From an uncultured virus (IMG/VR IMGVR_UViG_3300030103_004079) (taxonomy: Duplodnaviria; Heunggongvirae; Uroviricota; Caudoviricetes): a stretch of 64,000 nucleotides of DNA. Positions 5,617 to 13,431 of the stretch are shown here, in pieces. The DNA lies in IMG/VR virus record IMGVR_UViG_3300030103_004079; one strand, written 5' to 3'. A program made the position numbers and the translations under genes. The notes under the pieces were generated by a model, which was not told the DNA's origin, did no database searches, and was given only the letters and a program-made list of their open reading frames with translations. Within the stretch, counting starts at the first letter, position 1. Every line of letters begins with the position of its first letter.

Positions 5617-5625
5617 CTTTAAATA
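5617..5625 (+). promoter_or_regulatory. TATA box candidate (ctttaaata) upstream of Ubl gene
   Basis: TTTAAATA within the palindrome tcactttaaatagtga in a ~100-bp intergenic gap. Confidence 0.45.
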
Positions 5626-5670: not shown

Positions 5671-5871
5671 ATGGTAAAAGTAAGAATACTGAACGAAACA
5701 GGACATACGGAACTTCAACTAGAAGTTCAAGAGGTTATTGAACAAATTGACACACACCCGACACATTGGGTTTTTGTAGATGGTGAAATGGTTAGCCGTG
5801 AATCTATCAATGAAATCAATTGGGATGCAGTAGACAGCGTTGATTTGACCCCTGCTATCGTAGGCGGCTGA
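5671..5871 (+). CDS. Ubiquitin-like (ThiS/MoaD/SAMP-type beta-grasp) protein, 66 aa
   Basis: Ends in ...VDLTPAIVGG-stop; WVFVDGE strand; GGAG RBS before ATG 5671. Confidence 0.8.
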   Translation: MVKVRILNETGHTELQLEVQEVIEQIDTHPTHWVFVDGEMVSRESINEINWDAVDSVDLTPAIVGG

Positions 5872-5909
5872 ATTAGTATCTACTAATTCTTCTCAATAAC
5901 AATGGAAGA

Positions 5910-5941
5910 GGGGGGAAGGGGTTATTACACTCCTTCTCCCC
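5910..5941 (+). terminator. 13-bp GC-rich hairpin after the Ubl gene (terminator or RNA-stabilising)
   Basis: ggggggaaggggt / actccttctcccc with two G-U pairs. Confidence 0.4.
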
Positions 5942-5950
5942 GTTTATGGT

Positions 5951-6301
5951 GTGAAGATGGAATACCACGACTTTATCGAGTCCTCCTTTACCATAATAAA
6001 TGGATGGGATTATAAAGTTGAATCGTGGATTATAGATAGATTTGAGATGATTGTTTCTAGCAGAAGTCAAAAATCTATGATAAAATTTTCAGTAAATCAA
6101 TTGTTAGATAATATACTATGGGAAATTCCCTTAGCAGTCAATCAAGGTTTTTATGAGTGGAAAACCTCCAACCTTCCCCTTAGATTAGAAGCGATAAATT
6201 TCCATAGAGAAAATTGTAGTGGTCACAACAATTGTAAAATGTGTAAATTAGAAAAACAATGGAGTGAATTTAATGAAAGAACAAGACCCGAACTATGTTA
6301 G
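5951..6301 (+). CDS. Hypothetical protein with Cys/His cluster
   Basis: H..NCSGH..CKMC; likely start ATG 5957. Confidence 0.6.
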   Translation: MKMEYHDFIESSFTIINGWDYKVESWIIDRFEMIVSSRSQKSMIKFSVNQLLDNILWEIPLAVNQGFYEWKTSNLPLRLEAINFHRENCSGHNNCKMCKLEKQWSEFNERTRPELC

Positions 6302-6440
6302 TAGCCATAGAGCGTATAAGAAAAGAATCGCTACTAGATGCCGTGTATGCGGTGGGCAACTATTATTGCCCGAAGAAATAAAAATAGAAAGGCACAAGAA
6401 TTGTGTGCCAAAATCAAATTCAAAAATATATATGATGTGA
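6273..6440 (+). CDS. Small Zn-finger protein (55 aa), absent from ORF track
   Basis: MKEQDP...CRVCGGQLLLPEE...HKNC; GGAGTGA RBS. Confidence 0.65.
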   Translation: MKEQDPNYVSSHRAYKKRIATRCRVCGGQLLLPEEIKIERHKNCVPKSNSKIYMM

Positions 6441-6445
6441 TAATA

Positions 6446-7615
6446 ATGAATAAAATAGAAATTAGTATAAGAAAGCCGGATGATGGAATAGCATATTATA
6501 ATACTTATGTAAAGTCCGACCTGTTACATTACAGTAGAACCAAAACTGTAACTCCCGATAGGTCAGCGAAAGACCCCCTACATAGTGCACTAAAGACTAT
6601 GTTCAAAGGAATATTAAAACAACCTAGAACGAATAGGTGGGGTTACACCAACAAACTAAATTATTTTGGTGAAAATGACTTTAGTGGAGTTATTTGGATA
6701 AAAGAATGTCCAATAGCACTATCAAGGACTAATAGTAAGTTTAGAATAAATGGTAAAGCAGAAAGCATGGAGACTATCGCTAATGCATTCGCTAGAGTTG
6801 CATTCAAGTCTTGCTTTACTGATGACAATTCACAGTTAATGCAAACTTTATTTTCTTCACTAGAACTTAGTGAAGATATTAAGTATGTATTAGAGAATAG
6901 AGTACCTTACCATTACTTTAGAGACTTTGAGAAGCAAGAGGTTAGACTCAATGTTGCTCAAATAGGTGACAAAGAGTTTGCTATTGAAATCGGTGACGGA
7001 GTATGGGGTAATATCTCATTGAAAGACTTACAATCATTTTGTAATTATTATATTCATAATAAGAAAAATAGCAAGTTTAGAAGAATGGGATTAAAGAGAC
7101 TATATGAAGCACTTGTCGGCAAAGAACCACTAGATTCAGACATTAAAGTTATGAGAGAGTTTCTAGCACAAAACAGAACGGAAGACCTTATTGAGAATAG
7201 AGCAAAAGAACTACTAAGAGATATTACACAACAATATCCCGATAGAATTAAACTGATTGAAGATGGAAATAATGAACCGGAAGATATGTATATTGCAGGT
7301 AATGACTACGATTGGAAACTAACTAATAGTAAATACAAGAGTGAAATACAAATGGTATCTACTTTTGTTAGACAAAAGCGAACTGATTATGACGACGAAG
7401 GTAATATTGCTGAAGAAGAATGGTTTTGGAGTGGGCCAATATGTATAGATAATATGGCTAGAGGTTCTTCACTAGGCGACCAATTCGCAACTAGAGCATT
7501 CGCTCTACTTAATGATAATATGACGGTAGCGAGAGTTAATACAATAAAATCGTACCTAAAATACAAACCAAATAAAAATGAAAGAGTGGATATAAATGAA
7601 GTGCATAGAGTGTGA
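6446..7615 (+). CDS. Hypothetical protein with a C-terminal Cys motif (GPICID...RAFALLND)
   Basis: Long ORF, start reset to ATG 6446; C-terminus resembles, from memory, the C-terminal domain of DUF4132-type proteins. Confidence 0.65.
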   Translation: MNKIEISIRKPDDGIAYYNTYVKSDLLHYSRTKTVTPDRSAKDPLHSALKTMFKGILKQPRTNRWGYTNKLNYFGENDFSGVIWIKECPIALSRTNSKFRINGKAESMETIANAFARVAFKSCFTDDNSQLMQTLFSSLELSEDIKYVLENRVPYHYFRDFEKQEVRLNVAQIGDKEFAIEIGDGVWGNISLKDLQSFCNYYIHNKKNSKFRRMGLKRLYEALVGKEPLDSDIKVMREFLAQNRTEDLIENRAKELLRDITQQYPDRIKLIEDGNNEPEDMYIAGNDYDWKLTNSKYKSEIQMVSTFVRQKRTDYDDEGNIAEEEWFWSGPICIDNMARGSSLGDQFATRAFALLNDNMTVARVNTIKSYLKYKPNKNERVDINEVHRV

Positions 7616-8432
7616 TGGAAACAAATTTGAAATGGATGAAAGATTAGGCGAACTATCTTGTATGGATTGTGGCTATATTGCCGTAACAGAACTGTTTGAA
7701 CAAACTGTATTGCCTATCAATAAAAGCGGAGAGTTTATTCATTCTGCTGATAGAACATTAGGTTCAAGAATTAATTCTAAGGGTAGAGTGTGGTTTAGAG
7801 ACTCTAATCATCATTTAGTGAAAGGACTTAGAATGTGCAATATGTTATTGGCTACGCTGATGACTAACCATCCACTAAAAGATAGAGTAGAAGAATGCTA
7901 TATTTCTCTCTACAGAAGAAATATATTGACCACTTTAGGTGTCGAAGAAAAGGCAACTGCTGTTGTATATTATGTTCTAAGAGAAAATAGAACGCCTATA
8001 TCACTCAAAGAGTTAAGACAGGAGTTTTCTTGTAATACTAGAACATTAAATCAAGCAGTAAAAAGAATCAACAAGCATTTCAATAATGTAAATGCTTATA
8101 CTAAGATTGACCCACATTATATGTTAAAAGCAGTCACAAGTAAAATTACTGATGACTTAACCTTTGCATCTAATTGTCAAGATGTATTAGAGTTATTTGA
8201 GCCTTTAACACAGAATGTAGATTGTGTAAAAGGCACAGTATATTATTCTAGTATTTGTTGGATTGCTAAGAACATCTACTTACATCCAATAAAACAGAAA
8301 GAGATTGCAGAAAAGGCCAATGTGTCTTTATCTTCAATCAAACTAACCACGAAGAAACTGTTGGCTTTGATTGGTTATGAAAAATGCTCTCAAGTGAGAG
8401 GTAAACAGATAAATGAATTAAGGAGAAATTAA
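7596..8432 (+). CDS. tfb: Transcription factor B (TFIIB)-like protein
   Basis: N-terminal Zn ribbon CIEC...GELSCMDCG, two cyclin-like repeats, QKEIAEKANVS HTH. Confidence 0.88.
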   Translation: MKCIECDGNKFEMDERLGELSCMDCGYIAVTELFEQTVLPINKSGEFIHSADRTLGSRINSKGRVWFRDSNHHLVKGLRMCNMLLATLMTNHPLKDRVEECYISLYRRNILTTLGVEEKATAVVYYVLRENRTPISLKELRQEFSCNTRTLNQAVKRINKHFNNVNAYTKIDPHYMLKAVTSKITDDLTFASNCQDVLELFEPLTQNVDCVKGTVYYSSICWIAKNIYLHPIKQKEIAEKANVSLSSIKLTTKKLLALIGYEKCSQVRGKQINELRRN

Positions 8433-8433
8433 A

Positions 8434-8631
8434 ATGATAAATGAAGAATGGATTGAATACTATGTGTATTTAGAAGAATTGAGACAAAGTGGAGTGACCA
8501 ATATGTTTGGTGCTACTCCTTATTTGAGAGAACAGTTCGGCTTAGGTCGAAGAGAAGCAATAAAGATTTTAGGTAGTTGGATGGATAACTACCAAGAGTT
8601 GTTAGATAAAGGAATAATTAGGAGAGATTAA
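8434..8631 (+). CDS. Small conserved phage-type protein
   Basis: LEELRQSGVTNMFGATPYL motif. Confidence 0.7.
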   Translation: MINEEWIEYYVYLEELRQSGVTNMFGATPYLREQFGLGRREAIKILGSWMDNYQELLDKGIIRRD

Positions 8632-8632
8632 A

Positions 8633-8752
8633 ATGAAACAATATAGATGCCCAAGATGTGATGGAACAATGTTTGAATGGGAGACAGAAAATTATGAAGG
8701 AGTCCAATGTAAAGATTGTGGCTATAACGAACAAAGTGAAAAATATTATTAG
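8633..8752 (+). CDS. Micro Zn-ribbon protein (39 aa), absent from ORF track
   Basis: CPRC...CKDCG; GGAG RBS. Confidence 0.6.
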   Translation: MKQYRCPRCDGTMFEWETENYEGVQCKDCGYNEQSEKYY

Positions 8753-8763
8753 GAGGAATAAAA

Positions 8764-9324
8764 ATGAAAAGAAAAATATTAGTAATTGGAGCAGGTGGAA
8801 TAGGAAGTTATCTTATTTCATTTTTGAATAACTTAGACTTGTATGAGATACAAGTGAATGACGATGATAAGGTAGAAACAAAGAATCTAACATATCAAAA
8901 CTTTAGTGAAGATGATGTTGGTTTGCATAAAGTTTCCAGTATGAAGGCTAACTTTAATTGCATAAAGTTCGCAAGCCCCTATCCTATCTTAACACCTAAT
9001 CAACTAGAAGGTTTTGACCTAGTAGTTTGTTGTGTAGATAACTTAGGCACTAGAAGAATGCTTTACAACTCAAATGTAAAGTGGTTAGACTTGCGTTCTC
9101 AAGGTAGAAATGCGGCTTATGTTTCTTATCAAGCAGACCCATCAATGTATGATAGTTTGCTAGCAGGTAAGGAAGGTTCGTTTAGTTGTCAAGGAGAATC
9201 ATGGGATGGTTCTCAAGAAGGAATACATTTCATGCACATGGCTATTGCAGGTATGGGCGCACAATGGATTCAAAGATGGTTTAACGGTGAAAGTGTAAAC
9301 TCTTTCGCTGTAGTAAATGTATGA
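8764..9324 (+). CDS. ThiF/E1-like ubiquitin-activating (adenylating) enzyme
   Basis: VIGAGGIG, DDDKVETKNLTYQ, VCCVDN..TR, LDLR, C-terminal FSCQ Cys. Confidence 0.9.
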   Translation: MKRKILVIGAGGIGSYLISFLNNLDLYEIQVNDDDKVETKNLTYQNFSEDDVGLHKVSSMKANFNCIKFASPYPILTPNQLEGFDLVVCCVDNLGTRRMLYNSNVKWLDLRSQGRNAAYVSYQADPSMYDSLLAGKEGSFSCQGESWDGSQEGIHFMHMAIAGMGAQWIQRWFNGESVNSFAVVNV

Positions 9325-9333
9325 GGTGATAAG

Positions 9334-9852
9334 ATGGTAGATATAGAAATAGAAAGTTTAGAAGATGCTAGAGTTAGGGCAGAACAACACATAAGAGAAT
9401 GTTATGGGGCTATGGAAAAATTAACTGGCGAGGCGGATGACGAATTTCCTTACAAAGAGCGAGAGTTCTTCAAGGCTATTTGGCATGCCTCTACAGAAAT
9501 ACTACCTGCCTTAGAAGTGCAAGTAGTTATTGATGGTAAGAACAATTGTTATGTTACAACGGGTTCATCCGGCTATGTTGAGTTTGGAATGAAACCTCCT
9601 GTTGGTATGAGTTTACCGATTAAGTGTTGGATTCATACTCATCCATTTGGTGCGGCCTACTTTAGTGGCGTTGATTGGGGAACAGTAAATGTATGGAAGT
9701 CATTAATGCAAGAAGCCTATGTATTAGGTGGTGTAGAACACTATGGTTATTGGCATAATTCAAAGCCGGACTTATTAATGATTAGATATTTGGATAATAG
9801 TGGATTAGAGACTTTTAGAGGCCAAGTACAGCCGGAGCGTGAAGAAGAATGA
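9334..9852 (+). CDS. JAB/MPN+ metalloprotease (deubiquitinase-like)
   Basis: LEVQ Glu plus WIHTHP...FSGVD (HxH-x7-S-xx-D). Confidence 0.88.
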   Translation: MVDIEIESLEDARVRAEQHIRECYGAMEKLTGEADDEFPYKEREFFKAIWHASTEILPALEVQVVIDGKNNCYVTTGSSGYVEFGMKPPVGMSLPIKCWIHTHPFGAAYFSGVDWGTVNVWKSLMQEAYVLGGVEHYGYWHNSKPDLLMIRYLDNSGLETFRGQVQPEREEE

Positions 9853-10229
9853 CATGGTGTAGAAATATGAATAACGATTATATTAATAACGGTATAAAAA
9901 AGCGAAGAATCTTAGTTCCTAAGATGAAACTTAGAGAGCCAATTGTTGAACCAAAGAAATATAATTTCACAGATGAATACAAGAAATTGATGAAGTCTTT
10001 GAAGGCGCAAGATGAAAAGCAAAAAGCAAAACAAGACGAAGTTGATTACAAGAAATTGTATGAAAAACTTAAGCAAGAACATGAAAATCTAAAACAACAG
10101 TTAGAAGAAACTAATCAACCCGCTACAGGAAATAACAACATACAAATTTCAGCAGGTCAAAATGTAAATATAACAATAAGTGAAGGAGATAGGTTTAGTG
10201 ATTCAGTAAATATGGAGGAGAGAAAATGA
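9849..10229 (+). CDS. Coiled-coil hypothetical protein
   Basis: ATGA-coupled ORF; YKKL-containing heptads. Confidence 0.6.
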   Translation: MTWCRNMNNDYINNGIKKRRILVPKMKLREPIVEPKKYNFTDEYKKLMKSLKAQDEKQKAKQDEVDYKKLYEKLKQEHENLKQQLEETNQPATGNNNIQISAGQNVNITISEGDRFSDSVNMEERK

Positions 10230-10438
10230 AAGCAGTAGGAAAATGGGTAATAGTAGAAAAAGTAAATGAAAAGAGTGGAGCAATTATATCTAAAGTAGAT
10301 AACAAAGGCGTAGTCTATGACTGTCGTTGTGATAAAAACTTGAGAGATAAGATTGTCTACTTCAATGAAAGAAAAGATTATGTCAAGGTGAACGATTTTA
10401 TTGCAGTTCACTATGATGATATACTGGCGGTGGAATAA
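10226..10438 (+). CDS. groES: GroES-like co-chaperonin
   Basis: MKAVGKWVIVEK...GVV...YDDILAVE; just upstream of groEL. Confidence 0.75.
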   Translation: MKAVGKWVIVEKVNEKSGAIISKVDNKGVVYDCRCDKNLRDKIVYFNERKDYVKVNDFIAVHYDDILAVE

Positions 10439-12133: not shown

Positions 12134-12226
12134 TTGGAATGTCCTAACTGTGGGAGAGATATGTCTAAGTATTATGCTAGAAGATACAACCAATGTAAGG
12201 TATGTTTAGAAGGTGAAAGTAAATGA
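12134..12226 (+). CDS. Micro Zn-finger protein (30 aa, TTG start)
   Basis: CPNCG...CKVC; GGAGG RBS. Confidence 0.5.
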   Translation: MECPNCGRDMSKYYARRYNQCKVCLEGESK

Positions 12227-12621
12227 AGAAGAGAGCAGTAACCGTAACATTACCTGCACCTCATAAGGCACAGATTAAATGCCCTATTTGTAAAGGTAAC
12301 AAATGCGTAGTTTGTAAAATGACAGGCAGTTTAGCAATAGATGTTGCACCCAAGATACCAATACAAAGAGCGCATATTATCAAATATGTTATGGAGAACA
12401 TGCAAGATGTTTCTCAAGAACTAACTAGAATGTATGGTTTAGTACCGGAGATAGGAACTAAAGAAGTAGTTGTTGTCAATGAGGGTCAGTATGAGATAGT
12501 ACAAGTATCATCTTTAGGCGGTGCTTGTTGGATAGTAAATAGACTGGATGAATTAGAAACACCACGATACTTCACCGCTTTGAAAGACTTAAAGAAATTC
12601 AAAGAGGGGTGGATGAGTTGA
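12223..12621 (+). CDS. Zn-finger protein (DnaJ-like CxxCxG motif)
   Basis: CPICKGNKCVVCKMTG. Confidence 0.65.
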   Translation: MKKRAVTVTLPAPHKAQIKCPICKGNKCVVCKMTGSLAIDVAPKIPIQRAHIIKYVMENMQDVSQELTRMYGLVPEIGTKEVVVVNEGQYEIVQVSSLGGACWIVNRLDELETPRYFTALKDLKKFKEGWMS

Positions 12622-12815: not shown

Positions 12816-13075
12816 CGAAAATAATAAGCGATGTGCAAATAAAGAAATTAATGAGAGCGTATAATCCTAAAAGAGAATGGTCGGAAGGTTGTATAGAACA
12901 ACTTAGACAAAACTCTTGGCAGTTAATCAATTTCATGTTAAGTGAGATTGAAACCAACATGGAAGGAAATAAAAGAGTTCAATCACAAGATATAGTGAAT
13001 GCTTACAATTTTATTGCTAATGCAATAATGTTAGCGAAGCAACCTGTATTGAGACATTTTATGGAGGAAGAATAA
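12812..13075 (+). CDS. Histone-fold-like protein
   Basis: IKKLMR...WSEGCIEQL...KRVQSQDIVNA matches the archaeal histone helix pattern. Confidence 0.55.
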   Translation: MTKIISDVQIKKLMRAYNPKREWSEGCIEQLRQNSWQLINFMLSEIETNMEGNKRVQSQDIVNAYNFIANAIMLAKQPVLRHFMEEE

Positions 13076-13431
13076 TGTTCAAGTATATTAGAATTTGGCA
13101 GAATGATAAAAAGTTAGACGAATGGGCTAAGAAGATTAGAAAAGAAATTAAGAACGAAAGATTACTAGAAGCCTTTGAAATAGATTTTAGTCAAATCAAA
13201 AGGACTAATGAATTTACAAGAGCATCATTTGTTATGTATTGGGAAATACAAACTAATAGCCAACTGGCTACACTTGCACCGCCTTTGGTTCAAGCCACTT
13301 TAGTATCTATGACTAATAGGTTAGTAGAGATGGAAAGAATGGATGAAGCGCAAGTAGTGAATGCTATGATGATTAACTTTACTAGAGTATTAGGTATAAT
13401 CAATAGTGGTGTTAATAATGAAGAAGAGTGA
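13075..13431 (+). CDS. Hypothetical protein
   Basis: Coupled ORF with GGAGG RBS. Confidence 0.7.
   Translation: MFKYIRIWQNDKKLDEWAKKIRKEIKNERLLEAFEIDFSQIKRTNEFTRASFVMYWEIQTNSQLATLAPPLVQATLVSMTNRLVEMERMDEAQVVNAMMINFTRVLGIINSGVNNEEE

Follow-up and report, generated by a model that had tools for sequence, protein, structure and literature searches.

A probable virus-encoded ubiquitin-like protein-conjugation set in a magrovirus-type archaeal virus

We analyzed a window of 64,000 nucleotides, the whole stretch of DNA at hand, which comes from a magrovirus-type tailed archaeal virus; magroviruses are abundant ocean viruses of archaea. Within it lie genes for a ubiquitin-like protein (Ubl), a minimal E1, a JAMM (JAB) protease and a probable E2, next to a viral TFB gene. 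The best reading, which we hold to be fairly probable, is that they form a virus-encoded, self-contained and reversible cascade for conjugating the Ubl to proteins, with a chemistry that we infer. If this is true, the virus tags proteins by itself, with its own small ubiquitin-like tag, activating enzyme, trimming protease and probable carrier enzyme. A first-pass annotation of the stretch had likewise proposed a Ubl/E1/JAB conjugation set beside a viral TFB, and had favored tagging over sulfur relay; the predicted fold, the GG end, the co-occurrence of the genes and the lack of sulfur enzymes in the window and the relatives searched all support it. The Ubl, E1 and JAB reading frames that it had listed were confirmed codon by codon. 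The features of the locus are the following.

5618..5625, plus strand: TATA-like box (TTTAAATA), 46 nt upstream of the Ubl start codon
5671..5871, plus strand: Ubl, 66-aa ThiS/MoaD-like beta-grasp protein ending in AIVGG-stop
5870..5945, plus strand: pair of hairpins immediately 3' of the Ubl stop; the second has a G/C-rich stem of 13 bp, with GUUUAU after it
6264..6440, plus strand: protein of 58 aa with Cys and His motifs (CxxC ... HxxC), encoded shortly before the E2-like gene
6446..7615, plus strand: 389-aa protein with a C-terminal E2/UBC-like domain, from predicted structure
7596..8432, plus strand: viral TFB/TFIIB with Zn ribbon and cyclin-like repeats, from Pfam and PDB profile
8764..9324, plus strand: minimal E1, a ThiF-type adenylation domain of 186 aa, from Pfam ThiF
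9334..9852, plus strand: JAMM/MPN+ metalloprotease of 172 aa with a complete E/HxH/S/D motif

The Ubl is encoded by 5671-5868, followed by TGA, with an SD-like GGAG 9 nt upstream of the ORF. Sequence searches of Pfam, PHROG, NCBIfam and PDB gave no match to it. The AF2 model (pLDDT 89) has the element order b-b-a-b-b-(h)-b, and nearly all of its top 50 Foldseek matches were ubiquitin, NEDD8, ISG15 or SUMO (best E 2.9e-3, prob 1.00). The VIA structural matches were led by MoaD (Z 5.5, 24% identity), followed by Fubi, ISG15, a bacterial Ubl, CysO, SAMP1, TtuB and ThiS; the highest sequence identities there (20-24%) belonged to the sulfur carriers MoaD, CysO and SAMP1 and a MoaD-related protein. 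The C-terminal A-[IVL]-V-G-G was invariant in 45/45 and 80/80 loci. The first-pass annotation had made its proposal depend on a beta-grasp Ubl with a conserved GG end, and the former is predicted and the latter was found. As judged from the reading frame, the Ubl of the present virus should be produced already mature, with no residues after GG.

The Ubl gene is flanked by elements of its own. TTTAWATA is not common in the window, as it matches 8 times against 25.7 expected. Among 86 unique upstream regions from relatives, 33 have a strict TATA-like match between -43 and -54, a count that leaves aside one-mismatch variants seen by eye at the same site. The hairpins on the 3' side have an MFE of -31.8 kcal/mol (z -5.0), and none of 200 shuffles folded equally well. 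In relatives, the 90-nt regions downstream of the Ubl gave z < -2 in 72 of 89 unique cases and z < -3 in 62, at 40 mononucleotide shuffles per region. With a TATA-like box at a conserved position and strong 3' hairpins, the Ubl gene appears to be a unit by itself. Of the single early operon proposed before, the common strand and the module therefore stand, but the Ubl gene appears to be separate from it.

The E1 matched Pfam ThiF with 62.8 bits against a cut-off of 28.1 (E 3.5e-17), although it is without the N-terminal ~20 and the C-terminal ~34 positions of that model. It shows the motifs GAGGIG and CVDN and a single Cys in SFSCQ; the invariant positions are GxGGxG, D33, K40-N41, D92-N93 and the one Cys, and Tyr Y44 is invariant where the canonical E1 NxxRQ motif has Arg. 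This Cys142 (codon 9187-9189) lies in S[FY]SCQ in 111 of 111 unique homologues, and CxxC was absent from all 152 homologous E1 matches. It has neither a rhodanese nor a UFD domain, and no NCBIfam model reached its cut-off, the best being ThiF, UbaA, PRTRC-ThiF and MoeB. Matches to the PADLOC E1-E2 (Cap2-type) models were limited to the first ~65 residues, and PDB profile matches (UBA5, MccB, Cap2, MoeB, Uba4) to the N-terminal ~100 positions. With hhalign, MoeB/UbaA-like archaeal E1s were aligned at 99% (E 6e-18). Since this alignment places Cys142 opposite the second Cys of their first CxxC pair, and not opposite the downstream SCQEAGV cysteine, where it ends, Cys142 is only a putative catalytic cysteine.

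The JAB ORF had no Pfam match of its own, and its homologue profile matched the solved JAMM enzymes AMSH-LP (E 2e-5) and an archaeal Rpn11-like protein (E 2e-3). Residues E61, H101-x-H103-x7-S111-xx-D114 (codons 9514, 9634, 9640, 9664 and 9673) are invariant in 55 aligned homologues, and HxHx7SxxD appears in 110 of 111 unique homologues; the remaining one is cut short by the end of its locus. Of 80 unique Ubl sequences, 15 stop at GG and 65 carry 1-2 further residues, like precursors that need trimming by a peptidase; for most relatives, the JAMM enzyme is therefore probably a maturase. In all 27 loci with a tail-less Ubl, JAB was nevertheless intact, which points to a role in deconjugation too. 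Across the family it is thus probably both maturase and deconjugase. The first-pass annotation had argued from the exposed GG that JAB is a deconjugase rather than a maturase, which holds for the present virus but not for the family.

The genes keep a constant order. When the E1 served as seed, a scan returned 75 viral loci, 74 of them with a JAB gene. With the Ubl as seed, 214 stretches were confirmed and 80 retained, 75 of which have at least 8 kb downstream. In 74 of these 75, the 389-aa gene, E1 and JAB follow one another as in the present virus, and the exception, L100, ends before the expected JAB position. Spacing varied by kilobases despite the constant order. With 74/75 loci in both scans, the linkage is far beyond chance, and the co-occurrence in relatives to which the first-pass annotation had looked was borne out. 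Of the 80 Ubl-seeded loci, 79 have the 389-aa gene along with the Ubl. The 58-aa protein, for which a Pfam search gave no match, likewise had a tblastn match in 79 of these 80, always adjoining the 389-aa gene. The TFB gave weak Pfam matches (Zn_Ribbon_TF and TFIIB), and a profile of 31 homologues matched TFIIB in the PDB (E 1.3e-19, positions 14-267). The E2-like gene shares its last 20 nt with the start of the TFB gene; the two overlap or lie at most 3 nt apart in 121 of 135 loci, with TFB starts estimated from BLAST offsets and some contigs present in both locus sets. The set is possibly transcribed in seawater: contigs from 4 of 4 seawater RNA libraries (2 studies) contained pieces 90-99% like the Ubl, E2-like, TFB, E1 and JAB genes, though DNA carry-over is possible.

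The 389-aa protein is probably an E2, and as such a fourth part added to the set. Its start at 6446 had been assigned correctly, with stop codons upstream in four close relatives. No Pfam, PDB-sequence or Atlas match was found, and similarity of the E2-like domain to any E2 was undetectable in PDB-sequence and protein-database searches. The AF2 model (pLDDT 86.6) consists of an N-terminal part of ~240 aa without assigned fold and a predicted E2/UBC-like domain at about residues 245-385. Most of its 50 VIA rows were E2, UEV or RWD, all on the latter residues, and the wide search gave Ubc9 (Z 5.7), FANCL (5.7), E2S (5.3), RWD (5.0) and Ube2K (5.0); Z values of 4-5.7 for E2 matches lie below ~8, the tool's level for standing clear of common arrangements. 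Foldseek returned many E2 rows, with prob 0.3-0.63 and E-values of 0.07-0.25. Cys333 (codon 7442-7444) lies within GPICIDN. Every one of 109 unique relatives retains this Cys, its context GP[IF]CID being conserved, and no HPN-like triad before it is conserved. Among 1.84 billion proteins there were 153 representatives; the full-length ones have the E2-like domain at the C-terminus and the remainder are mostly fragments. One representative was a spurious match to a Cna_B repeat protein.

When the E2-like domain was modeled together with the Ubl, the predicted complex scored 0.71 (runs 0.74, 0.68 and 0.71), with the best of 3 controls at 0.01, at least 98% of contacts in agreement between runs and a partner pLDDT of at least 86. 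On the Ubl side the predicted interface consists of residues 60-66, 7-12, 33-40 and 58, and on the domain side of residues 96-105 and the following helix 108-130; in it the Ubl tail 60-66 rests on residues 96-105, where domain Cys96 is Cys333. Solved complexes pass the mark in 116 of 157 cases and mismatched pairs in 2 of 215, counts only roughly valid here because analysis-specific alignments were used, and the pass may reflect resemblance to the many solved E2~ubiquitin structures.

These results bear on an E2-independent form of tagging, as in archaeal SAMPylation, where E1 alone would activate the Ubl with no carrier enzyme and the 389-aa protein would be, for example, a target, an adaptor or a TFB partner. 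The ThiS/MoaD/SAMP-like Ubl and MoeB/UbaA-like E1 would suit it, the E2 call is structural with a modest Z, and the close junction with the TFB gene could mean a transcription-related role. We consider it unlikely, given the full retention of Cys333 in its context, the predicted placement of the Ubl tail at that residue with clean controls, and the co-conservation of the 389-aa gene with the Ubl.

Rather unlikely, too, is a sulfur carrier, in which the adenylated Ubl becomes a thiocarboxylate feeding a host sulfur-insertion enzyme and the JAMM protease is confined to tail trimming or adduct release, as in QbsE/QbsD/QbsC and CysO/Mec+; a double function like that of SAMP or Urm1 is possible. 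It could draw on the best identities of the Ubl model, on the best NCBIfam rows of the E1 and on the JAMM removal of a two-residue tail after GG, as in QbsE/QbsD, and the host could provide the sulfur enzymes. The RaFAH paper (PMC8276007) also counts MoeB/ThiF among the auxiliary metabolic genes most prevalent in archaeal viruses. Against it, sulfur-transfer families, including MoaE, ThiG, ATP_bind_3 and rhodanese, had no match among 84 protein queries from the window, in line with the first-pass annotation. MoaE was found in 0/5 complete relatives, and ThiG, PP-loop ATP_bind_3 and rhodanese in 0/5 records (four complete and one fragment), in searches with controls positive in 11-14 of 14 genomes. 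The E1 is also without a rhodanese domain, JAB is retained where there is no tail to trim, and the set sits beside TFB and chaperonin genes, not cofactor genes (window annotation). Finally, the candidate E2 at 6446-7615 adds weight to tagging as against sulfur relay, since it is a co-conserved Cys protein with a predicted contact to the Ubl tail.

That the set instead interferes with the host as counter-defence, the JAMM protease stripping host Ubl conjugates or Ubl and E1 serving as decoys that titrate host enzymes, is very unlikely: bacterial Ubl/E1/E2/JAB sets are described as anti-phage systems (PMC10557695, PMC11601596, accessible text), and in a Methanoperedens genome SNF2/methylase-like, UvrD-like and OLD-type ATPase-like genes (names given by eye from translations) flank a full-length relative of the minimal E1, but four co-conserved parts with intact catalytic motifs would be superfluous for a decoy.

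For the conjugation cascade that we prefer, we infer the chemical steps, the order of transfer and proteins as acceptors as follows. A promoter of its own would probably drive the Ubl gene and yield a separate transcript. Most relatives would first need the JAMM protease to trim the 1-2 residues after GG, a step that the present virus can do without. The minimal E1 would adenylate the Ubl at Gly66, possibly with a thioester on Cys142, and the Ubl would pass to Cys333 and be joined to amino groups of target proteins; their choice may fall to the N-terminal ~240 residues of the 389-aa protein. The JAMM protease would take the tag off again. As to the targets, the suggestions of the first-pass annotation (proteasome, TFB control or counter-defence) are speculative.

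We found no published description of the whole viral set, only of the ThiF gene alone. MoeB/ThiF "AMGs" were reported in archaeal viruses (PMC8276007), and Nidhogg Asgard viruses carry three E1-like genes (bioRxiv 10.1101/2021.07.29.454249). The accessible text of both reports ties ThiF/E1 in archaeal viruses to ubiquitination, as we do, but presents E1 alone, with a proposed hijack of the host Ubl system, and describes there no viral Ubl, JAMM or E2-like partner.

The viral set shares a carrier, a JAMM protease and a MoeB-like E1 with the QbsE/QbsD/QbsC and CysO/Mec+/MoeZ systems, and CysO is among the structural matches of its Ubl. In those systems JAMM-trimmed ThiS-like carriers have residues after GG, the MoeB-like E1 bears a rhodanese, sulfur-acceptor or biosynthetic enzymes are neighbors and, to our knowledge, there is no E2-like partner. 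By contrast, neither sulfur-acceptor neighbors nor rhodanese were found for the viral set in the window and the relatives searched. We also know of no E2 in SAMPylation, and UbaA serves sulfur transfer as well. Likeness to the SAMP system of Haloferax volcanii (SAMP1-3, UbaA, HvJAMM1; PMC4443979, PMC4895103, accessible text) lies in the archaeal setting, the ThiS/MoaD-like GG Ubl, among whose structural matches is SAMP1, the MoeB-type E1 and the JAMM deconjugase. In contrast, the viral E1 scores 42 bits on the NCBIfam UbaA model, with a cut-off of 450, and has none of the Zn-binding CxxC pairs of MoeB/UbaA-like E1s.

A full E1/E2/JAMM cascade outside eukaryotes is described for the ubiquitin operon of Caldiarchaeum subterraneum (Ub, E1, E2, small RING, Rpn11-like; PMC5654768, PMC3082918), whose Rpn11-like protein and ubiquitin are among the matches of the viral JAB and Ubl. 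Its proteins, RING E3 included, are eukaryote-like in sequence as far as the accessible text goes, whereas in the viral set E1 alone is recognizable by sequence and no RING was seen.

In the bacterial BilABCD operons (Type I/II), as given in the accessible text of PMC10557695, BilA is the Ubl, BilB the E2, BilC the JAB and BilD the E1, the last with inactive and active adenylation domains and a helical Cys insertion. Bil, encoded by a compact operon, defends cells against phages, whereas the viral set is spread over a conserved block with the TFB gene inside, its E1 is a single 186-aa domain, and its E2-like domain has no detectable sequence similarity to E2s and a ~240-aa N-terminal extension. 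The same four roles are nonetheless present in both, with Ubl residues beyond the conserved Gly and no dedicated E3, and one JAMM peptidase, BilC, both pre-processes the Ubl and cleaves conjugates (PMC10557695), the double role that we propose for the viral enzyme.

The window carries a real, strongly conserved, virus-encoded set of genes for a ubiquitin-like protein (Ubl), a ThiF-type E1, an E2-like protein and a JAMM protease (JAB). Its genes lie on the plus strand up to ~32 kb and on the minus strand beyond, and the related IMG/VR contigs reach 99 kb. Both gene content and relatives fit the magroviruses with GroEL that Philosof et al. (PMC5434244) reported for Marine Group II archaea. The features concerned are as follows.

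5671-5871, plus strand: Ubl, 66 aa
6264-6440, plus strand: 58-aa Cys-rich protein with CxxC...HxxC, upstream of the E2-like gene, in 79 of 80 loci, without a Pfam match
6446-7615, plus strand: E2-like protein, 389 aa
7596-8432, plus strand: viral TFIIB-like gene (TFB)
8633-8752, plus strand: 39-aa zinc ribbon with CxxC...CxxC, between a 65-aa ORF and the E1 gene, just 5' of the AGGAGG of E1
8764-9324, plus strand: E1, 186 aa
9334-9852, plus strand: JAB, 172 aa
10608-12131, plus strand: GroEL-type chaperonin (Pfam)
12223-12621, plus strand: 132-aa Cys-rich protein bearing CPICKGNKCVVC, after GroEL, in 70 of 75 loci, without a Pfam match
In the window, by Pfam: UvrD-type helicase, ATP-dependent DNA ligase and RFC-like AAA protein
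In the window, by Pfam: family B DNA polymerase, split in two pieces
In the window, by Pfam: PD-(D/E)XK nuclease and ERCC4 nuclease
In the window, by Pfam: tail tube protein, HK97-type capsid protein and prohead protease

An E1-seeded scan recovered 75 viral loci, with JAB in 74, the E2-like gene in 66, TFB in 62 and Ubl in 45. The one locus without JAB ends 71 nt past E1, and most Ubl misses stem from the limited flanks. Two loci with no Ubl within 6 kb (L106 and L117) have it 6.3 kb upstream of E1 when seeded from Ubl. A Ubl-seeded scan of IMG/VR gave 214 confirmed stretches, and the best 80 of these 214 were kept for analysis. Downstream sequence of 8 kb or more was available for 75 of the kept loci, and 74 of these had the E2-like gene, E1 and JAB; the contig of the sole exception (L100) stops ~1.8 kb past its E1. 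Gene order does not vary: Ubl, the 58-aa Cys/His protein, the E2-like gene, TFB, E1 and JAB, usually followed by a GroES-like gene, GroEL and the 132-aa protein. Hence Ubl, E1 and JAB, read as one system by the first-pass annotation, do occur together in relatives. All four roles known from the bacterial Bil operons (Ubl, E2-like, E1 and JAB) fall in this one co-conserved block, which is not a compact operon: in different clades, kilobases' worth of other genes are inserted between its members. Linkage that outlasts such insertions argues for a common function of the block genes. The stop codon of the E2-like gene overlaps or abuts the TFB start in 121/135 loci (20-nt overlap in the window), a count in which TFB starts are estimated and some contigs are present in both locus sets. 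A profile of 31 TFB homologues matched TFIIB over nearly its full length (E = 1.3e-19), so a viral TFB does stand beside the putative conjugation genes, as had been noticed.

The Ubl ORF (5671-5868 plus TGA) encodes 66 residues with the C-terminus AIVGG. An SD-like GGAG stands 9 nt before its ATG and the TATA-like TTTAAATA lies at 5618-5625, in keeping with the initial description of an ORF ending in GG-stop with its own TATA-like box. Single-sequence searches of Pfam, PHROGs, NCBIfam and PADLOC returned no match for Ubl, and PDB profile searches with Ubl and with the 389-aa protein returned no useful match. The AlphaFold2 model (34 homologues, pLDDT 89) has the strand order strand-strand-helix-strand-strand-(short helix)-strand. 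In Foldseek against the PDB nearly all of the first 50 rows were ubiquitin, NEDD8, ISG15 or SUMO (best E 2.9e-3, probability 0.9-1.0 with a best of 1.00, TM 0.4-0.5). The exhaustive VIA search gave MoaD at Z 5.5 (rmsd 3.1, 63 aligned, 24% identity) and Fubi at Z 5.5, followed by ISG15, a bacterial Bil-type Ubl, MOCS2A, CysO, SAMP1, TtuB and ThiS; a bacterial E1-E2-Ubl complex (8tyz_B) was matched at Z 5.3. Modest Z values are expected, because the protein has only 66 residues. On these models we regard the beta-grasp fold, supposed at the outset, as settled. The highest identities fall on the ThiS/MoaD side, and the fold is compatible with either a sulfur carrier or a modifier.

The GG end is conserved, as the reading of Ubl as a conjugated protein had presumed: A-[IVL]-V-G-G was invariant in 45/45 and 80/80 loci. 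Among 80 unique sequences, nothing follows the GG in 15, one residue in 14 and two in 51 (SL, NY, NQ, NL, Y, Q, C and others). Judged from sequence, such tails of one or two residues are the pattern of precursors needing peptidase trimming. His12, His29 and His32 are invariant or nearly so (G-H-T, H-P-T-H-W), as are W33 and W51, a set of residues uncommon among ubiquitin-like proteins.

The Ubl gene looks like a transcription unit of its own. TTTAWATA occurs 8 times in the window against 25.7 expected, and in 33/86 unique relatives the Ubl start codon is preceded by a strict TATA-like match at a distance of 43-54 nt. Directly 3' of the stop codon there are two hairpins (MFE -31.8 kcal/mol, z -5.0, 0/200 shuffles as good), and a strong fold is found there in 72/89 unique relatives (z < -2, mononucleotide shuffles). 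A separate unit would let Ubl be made in excess over the enzymes. All four seawater RNA libraries searched, from two studies, held contigs with pieces 90-99% like the Ubl, E2-like, TFB, E1 and JAB genes. We take these contigs as a weak hint of expression at most, since DNA carry-over is possible, they cannot rank genes or show transcript ends, and their uncovered parts are uninformative.

The assignment of E1 as ThiF-type was upheld by Pfam ThiF (PF00899), at 62.8 bits against a cut-off of 28.1, with residues 3-175 on positions 21-204 of the 238 in the model. In NCBIfam the ThiF, UbaA, PRTRC-ThiF and MoeB rows all scored 38-47 bits against cut-offs of 145-450, and E1 fell below the MoeB/UbaA-type cut-offs (UbaA, NF047750, 42.1 vs 450 bits; MoeB, 38.7 vs 266). 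PADLOC (2023) gave Cap2-type E1-E2 rows over the first ~65 residues of E1 only, and nothing for Ubl, the E2-like protein or JAB. E1 is an adenylation domain without any extra domain. Only two residues precede the strand next to GxGGxG, and the first ~20 and last ~34 Pfam model positions are lacking. The nucleotide-binding GxGxxG is kept: G9, G11, G12 and G14, together with D92-N93, which holds the Mg/ATP Asp of the (D/C)xDN strand, are invariant in 43 sequences and align with the same columns of MoeB/UbaA-like E1s. Other invariant residues are D33, K40-N41, R111, R115, Cys142 and the C-terminal WIQRWF. In E1s the Arg of NxxRQ has a role in ATP binding. This Arg is absent here: an invariant Tyr44 stands opposite it in alignments with PDB E1s and archaeal MoeB-like E1s (NLQRQ), and the invariant Lys40 is four residues ahead of Tyr44. 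The CxxC zinc pairs of MoeB/UbaA, initially reported as lacking, are found in none of the 152 homologous E1 hits. The candidate for the catalytic Cys of the crossover loop is Cys142, the single invariant Cys, in the context S[FY]SCQ in 111/111 unique homologues. Hhalign of E1 with archaeal MoeB/UbaA-like E1s from genomes (99%, E 6e-18) pairs Cys142 with the second Cys of the first CxxC, not with the downstream SCQEAGV Cys, and the alignment ends there; the local S-C-Q context is the same as in SCQEAGV. E1 is a stripped-down, atypical ThiF-type protein.

The E1 homologue search gave 684 clusters at 90% identity and was saturated by viral sequences, so it is uninformative on cellular relatives. 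Three close copies turned up in a scan of genome contigs, on MAG contigs with the labels Maricaulis and Altibacter; these are probably mis-binned viral contigs. The only full-length cellular relative found was in Methanoperedens sp. BLZ2 (L159, 5833-9143; hhalign 99.7%); of the 6 hits in 301 genomes of its phylum it ranked first and was alone in being full-length. It is flanked upstream by a 712-aa protein and downstream by a 166-aa protein ending GG-stop, and by eye its neighbours include SNF2/methylase-, UvrD- and OLD-ATPase-like genes. A related system may reside here within a mobile or defence island. As candidate relatives of the viral partners its two flanking proteins were not significant: the 712-aa protein matched the viral E2-like domain at E 0.17, its last 40 residues weakly echoing the viral Cys motif, and the 166-aa protein matched Ubl at E 0.52.

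JAB as a single sequence had no Pfam, PHROG, NCBIfam or PADLOC match. Its motif is intact, as had been seen by eye: E61, H101, H103, S111 and D114 are invariant in 55 aligned homologues with the spacing HxH-x7-S-xx-D, and the JAMM motif is present in 110/111 unique homologues. A profile of the 55 homologues matched AMSH-LP at 2e-5, over only ~34 positions around the motif, and further matches were STAMBP, Sst2 and an archaeal Rpn11-like protein. The suggestion that JAB is a deconjugase rather than a maturase, made because the Gly-Gly is already exposed, would hold only for the clade of the window, where Ubl ends in GG, and not for the relatives with tails, which make up 65/80 unique Ubl sequences. 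JAB with an intact motif is kept in 27/27 loci with a tail-less Ubl, and no other observation speaks as strongly for a role of JAB beyond trimming. BilC, the JAB of Bil systems, both trims the Ubl precursor and cleaves conjugates (PMC10557695).

The 389-aa protein between Ubl and TFB is the candidate E2. Stop codons upstream of 6446 in four close relatives place the start of its ORF there. It had no match in Pfam, PHROGs, NCBIfam, PADLOC (as a single protein) or PDB sequences, and no usable match in the ESM Atlas; the BFVD matches were three unnamed full-length homologues, and no annotated protein was among them. Its AlphaFold2 model (38 homologues) has a pLDDT of 86.6. In an exhaustive VIA search its residues ~245-385 matched Ubc9 (Z 5.7, rmsd 3.2, 90 aligned), FANCL (5.7), E2S (5.3), an RWD domain (5.0) and Ube2K (5.0), all Z values being under the tool's caution level of ~8. 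The ~240 residues N-terminal to this domain drew no fold assignment. Most of the 50 rows were E2, UEV or RWD proteins, and Foldseek with the 389-aa protein returned many E2s at a probability of 0.3-0.63. One family filling the VIA list over one whole domain points, at modest scores, to a candidate E2/UBC fold in the model. The motif GPICIDN directly follows the last strand, and its Cys333 (codon 7442-7444) is kept in 109/109 unique sequences; its surroundings hardly vary, and a conserved GDQ and a helix come after it. Canonical E2 active sites read G-x-[IV]-C-[LI]-D-I-L, a likeness that we find suggestive. No conserved His-Pro-Asn triad stands upstream of Cys333 in 38 aligned sequences. No E2 family of Pfam, such as UQ_con or Prok-E2, was matched in the 38 members of the 389-aa family, even at E 10, and none in 10 of the 150 listed representatives, chosen for odd length or partial match. 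A profile of the E2-like domain against 1.84 billion representatives found 153 members at E <= 0.001, all of its own family, and no bridge to known E2 families. The full-length members share one architecture and the rest are mostly fragments, with one spurious match to a Cna_B repeat protein. Within the window there is no second copy of the domain (best other ORF, E 0.33). In four loci (L016, L022, L023 and L031) the BLAST match of the 389-aa gene crosses one in-frame stop (TAA or TGA) near residue 388-408, which may reflect sequencing errors, a shorter C-terminus or alignment run-on; their rows were left out of the 389-aa alignment.

A complex of the E2-like domain (38-row alignment) with Ubl (34 rows) was predicted at a score of 0.71 (runs 0.74, 0.68 and 0.71), against 0.01 for the best of three controls. 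The mark for this score is reached by 116/157 solved complexes and 2/215 mismatched pairs, counts that apply only approximately, since the alignments were our own. Between runs the contacts agree to at least 98%, and partner pLDDT is at least 86. On the Ubl side the predicted interface comprises the tail 60-66, the b1-b2 loop 7-12, the b3-b4 face 33-40 and residue 58, with residues 7-12, 31 and 33 lying within it; on the E2-like side it comprises domain residues 96-105, of which 96 is Cys333, and the helix 108-130. The placement is that of ubiquitin on an E2 in the closed thioester state, so the pass may partly be memory of such structures. With that reservation, the model, which displays a likeness rather than binding itself, supports an association of Ubl with the E2-like domain.

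Smaller genes accompany the block. Both Cys-rich proteins (58 aa and 132 aa) are co-conserved with it. The 39-aa zinc ribbon has a weak match to the Pfam TFIIB Zn-ribbon (23 bits vs a cut-off of 29); close homologues lie upstream of E1 in 3/75 loci, plus a fourth, cut copy at a locus edge, and any CxxC...CxxC mini-ORF lies there in 8/75. As the missing zinc site or a conserved partner of E1 it was rejected, and because close homologues occur in only 3/75 loci we regard it as an accessory gene. A 70-aa ORF (10226-10438, plus strand) directly upstream of the chaperonin is kept in 31/75 E1-seeded and 58/80 Ubl-seeded loci, has only a weak PHROG match and could be a very short co-chaperonin. Magrovirus chaperonins have been suggested, by analogy with phage chaperonins, to be likely GroES-independent (Philosof et al., PMC5434244). 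E-rich C-termini are common in the plus-strand proteins, JAB ending EEE and others EE or EEE. At such junctions (for example 9838-9852, 10215-10229 and 13061-13078, plus strand) the last codons (GAAGAGGAA, GGAGGAAGAA and similar) double as a purine-rich SD-like sequence for the next, often overlapping, start codon. The acidic ends therefore seem to be a side effect of how densely the genes are packed.

Protein tagging is the best-supported mechanism for the viral Ubl/E1/E2-like/JAMM set, and we hold it to be rather probable. Sulfur relay, in which Ubl would be a sulfur carrier, is not supported: no sulfur-insertion enzyme is seen in the window, as the first-pass annotation had noted, and 84 protein queries, which took in every ORF of 55 aa or more (80 in all), matched no sulfur-transfer family. 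MoaE is absent from 5/5 complete relatives, while four complete relatives plus one fragment lack ATP_bind_3 (TtuA/NcsA type), rhodanese and ThiG; the same searches were positive in 11-14 of 14 control genomes. On the other side, sulfur-insertion enzymes could come from the host, and Ubl may have two roles, like SAMP or Urm1. As to what tagging might serve, one reading is that the viral cascade takes over host transcription: the E2-like protein, whose gene overlaps TFB in most relatives, would tag host basal factors (TFB, TBP) or other early targets for removal, and the viral TFB would then replace the removed factors. As a precedent, Haloferax TBP2 bears ubiquitin-like isopeptide bonds and is degraded by proteasomes (PMC4895103). 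We consider this takeover a long shot; if true, this would be the first prokaryotic virus known with a complete E1-E2-Ubl-deconjugase system of its own.

The E1 gene of archaeal viruses is already in print. According to the RaFAH paper (PMC8276007), MoeB/ThiF is among the most prevalent auxiliary genes that archaeal viruses carry, and one passage connects it with ubiquitination. Rambo et al. (bioRxiv 10.1101/2021.07.29.454249) describe Nidhogg Asgard viruses with three E1-like genes and suggest that the ubiquitin systems of the host are hijacked. Our searches found no publication linking magroviruses to ubiquitin or ThiF. The main text and two supplementary files of Philosof et al. (2017, PMC5434244) mention no ThiF, JAB, ubiquitin, MoeB, Mov34, MPN or TFB; the main texts of the later magrovirus papers PMC10160649 and PMC11706807 mention no ThiF, JAB, ubiquitin or MoeB, and that of PMC11706807 no JAMM. 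For the Ubl, JAMM or E2-like partners, or for the whole set, we found no description in these texts, which agrees with the initial impression that the system had not been described in these viruses.

Magroviruses are ranked among the most abundant marine viruses (Philosof et al., PMC5434244). An apparently complete Ubl cascade set is carried here by a virus and kept across a widespread marine archaeal virus group: E1 forms 684 clusters at 90% identity, and IMG/VR yielded 214 stretches encoding Ubl. If proteins are tagged, ubiquitin-type modification would be used on both sides of the prokaryotic virus-host conflict. The set would also offer very small parts for mechanistic work, namely Ubl with 66 aa, E1 with 186 aa and the E2-like domain; the host is uncultured, but the parts can be tested in vitro. 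To our knowledge, Ubl/E1/E2/JAMM cascades outside eukaryotes have so far been cellular: the archaeal SAMP system, the Caldiarchaeum operon and the bacterial Bil/Bub/CBASS anti-phage systems. In logic the Bil operons are closest to the viral set, and in parts the archaeal SAMP system (SAMP1-3, UbaA, JAMM), but the viral set is carried by a virus and has a minimal E1 and an E2-like domain that sequence searches tie to no known E2 family.
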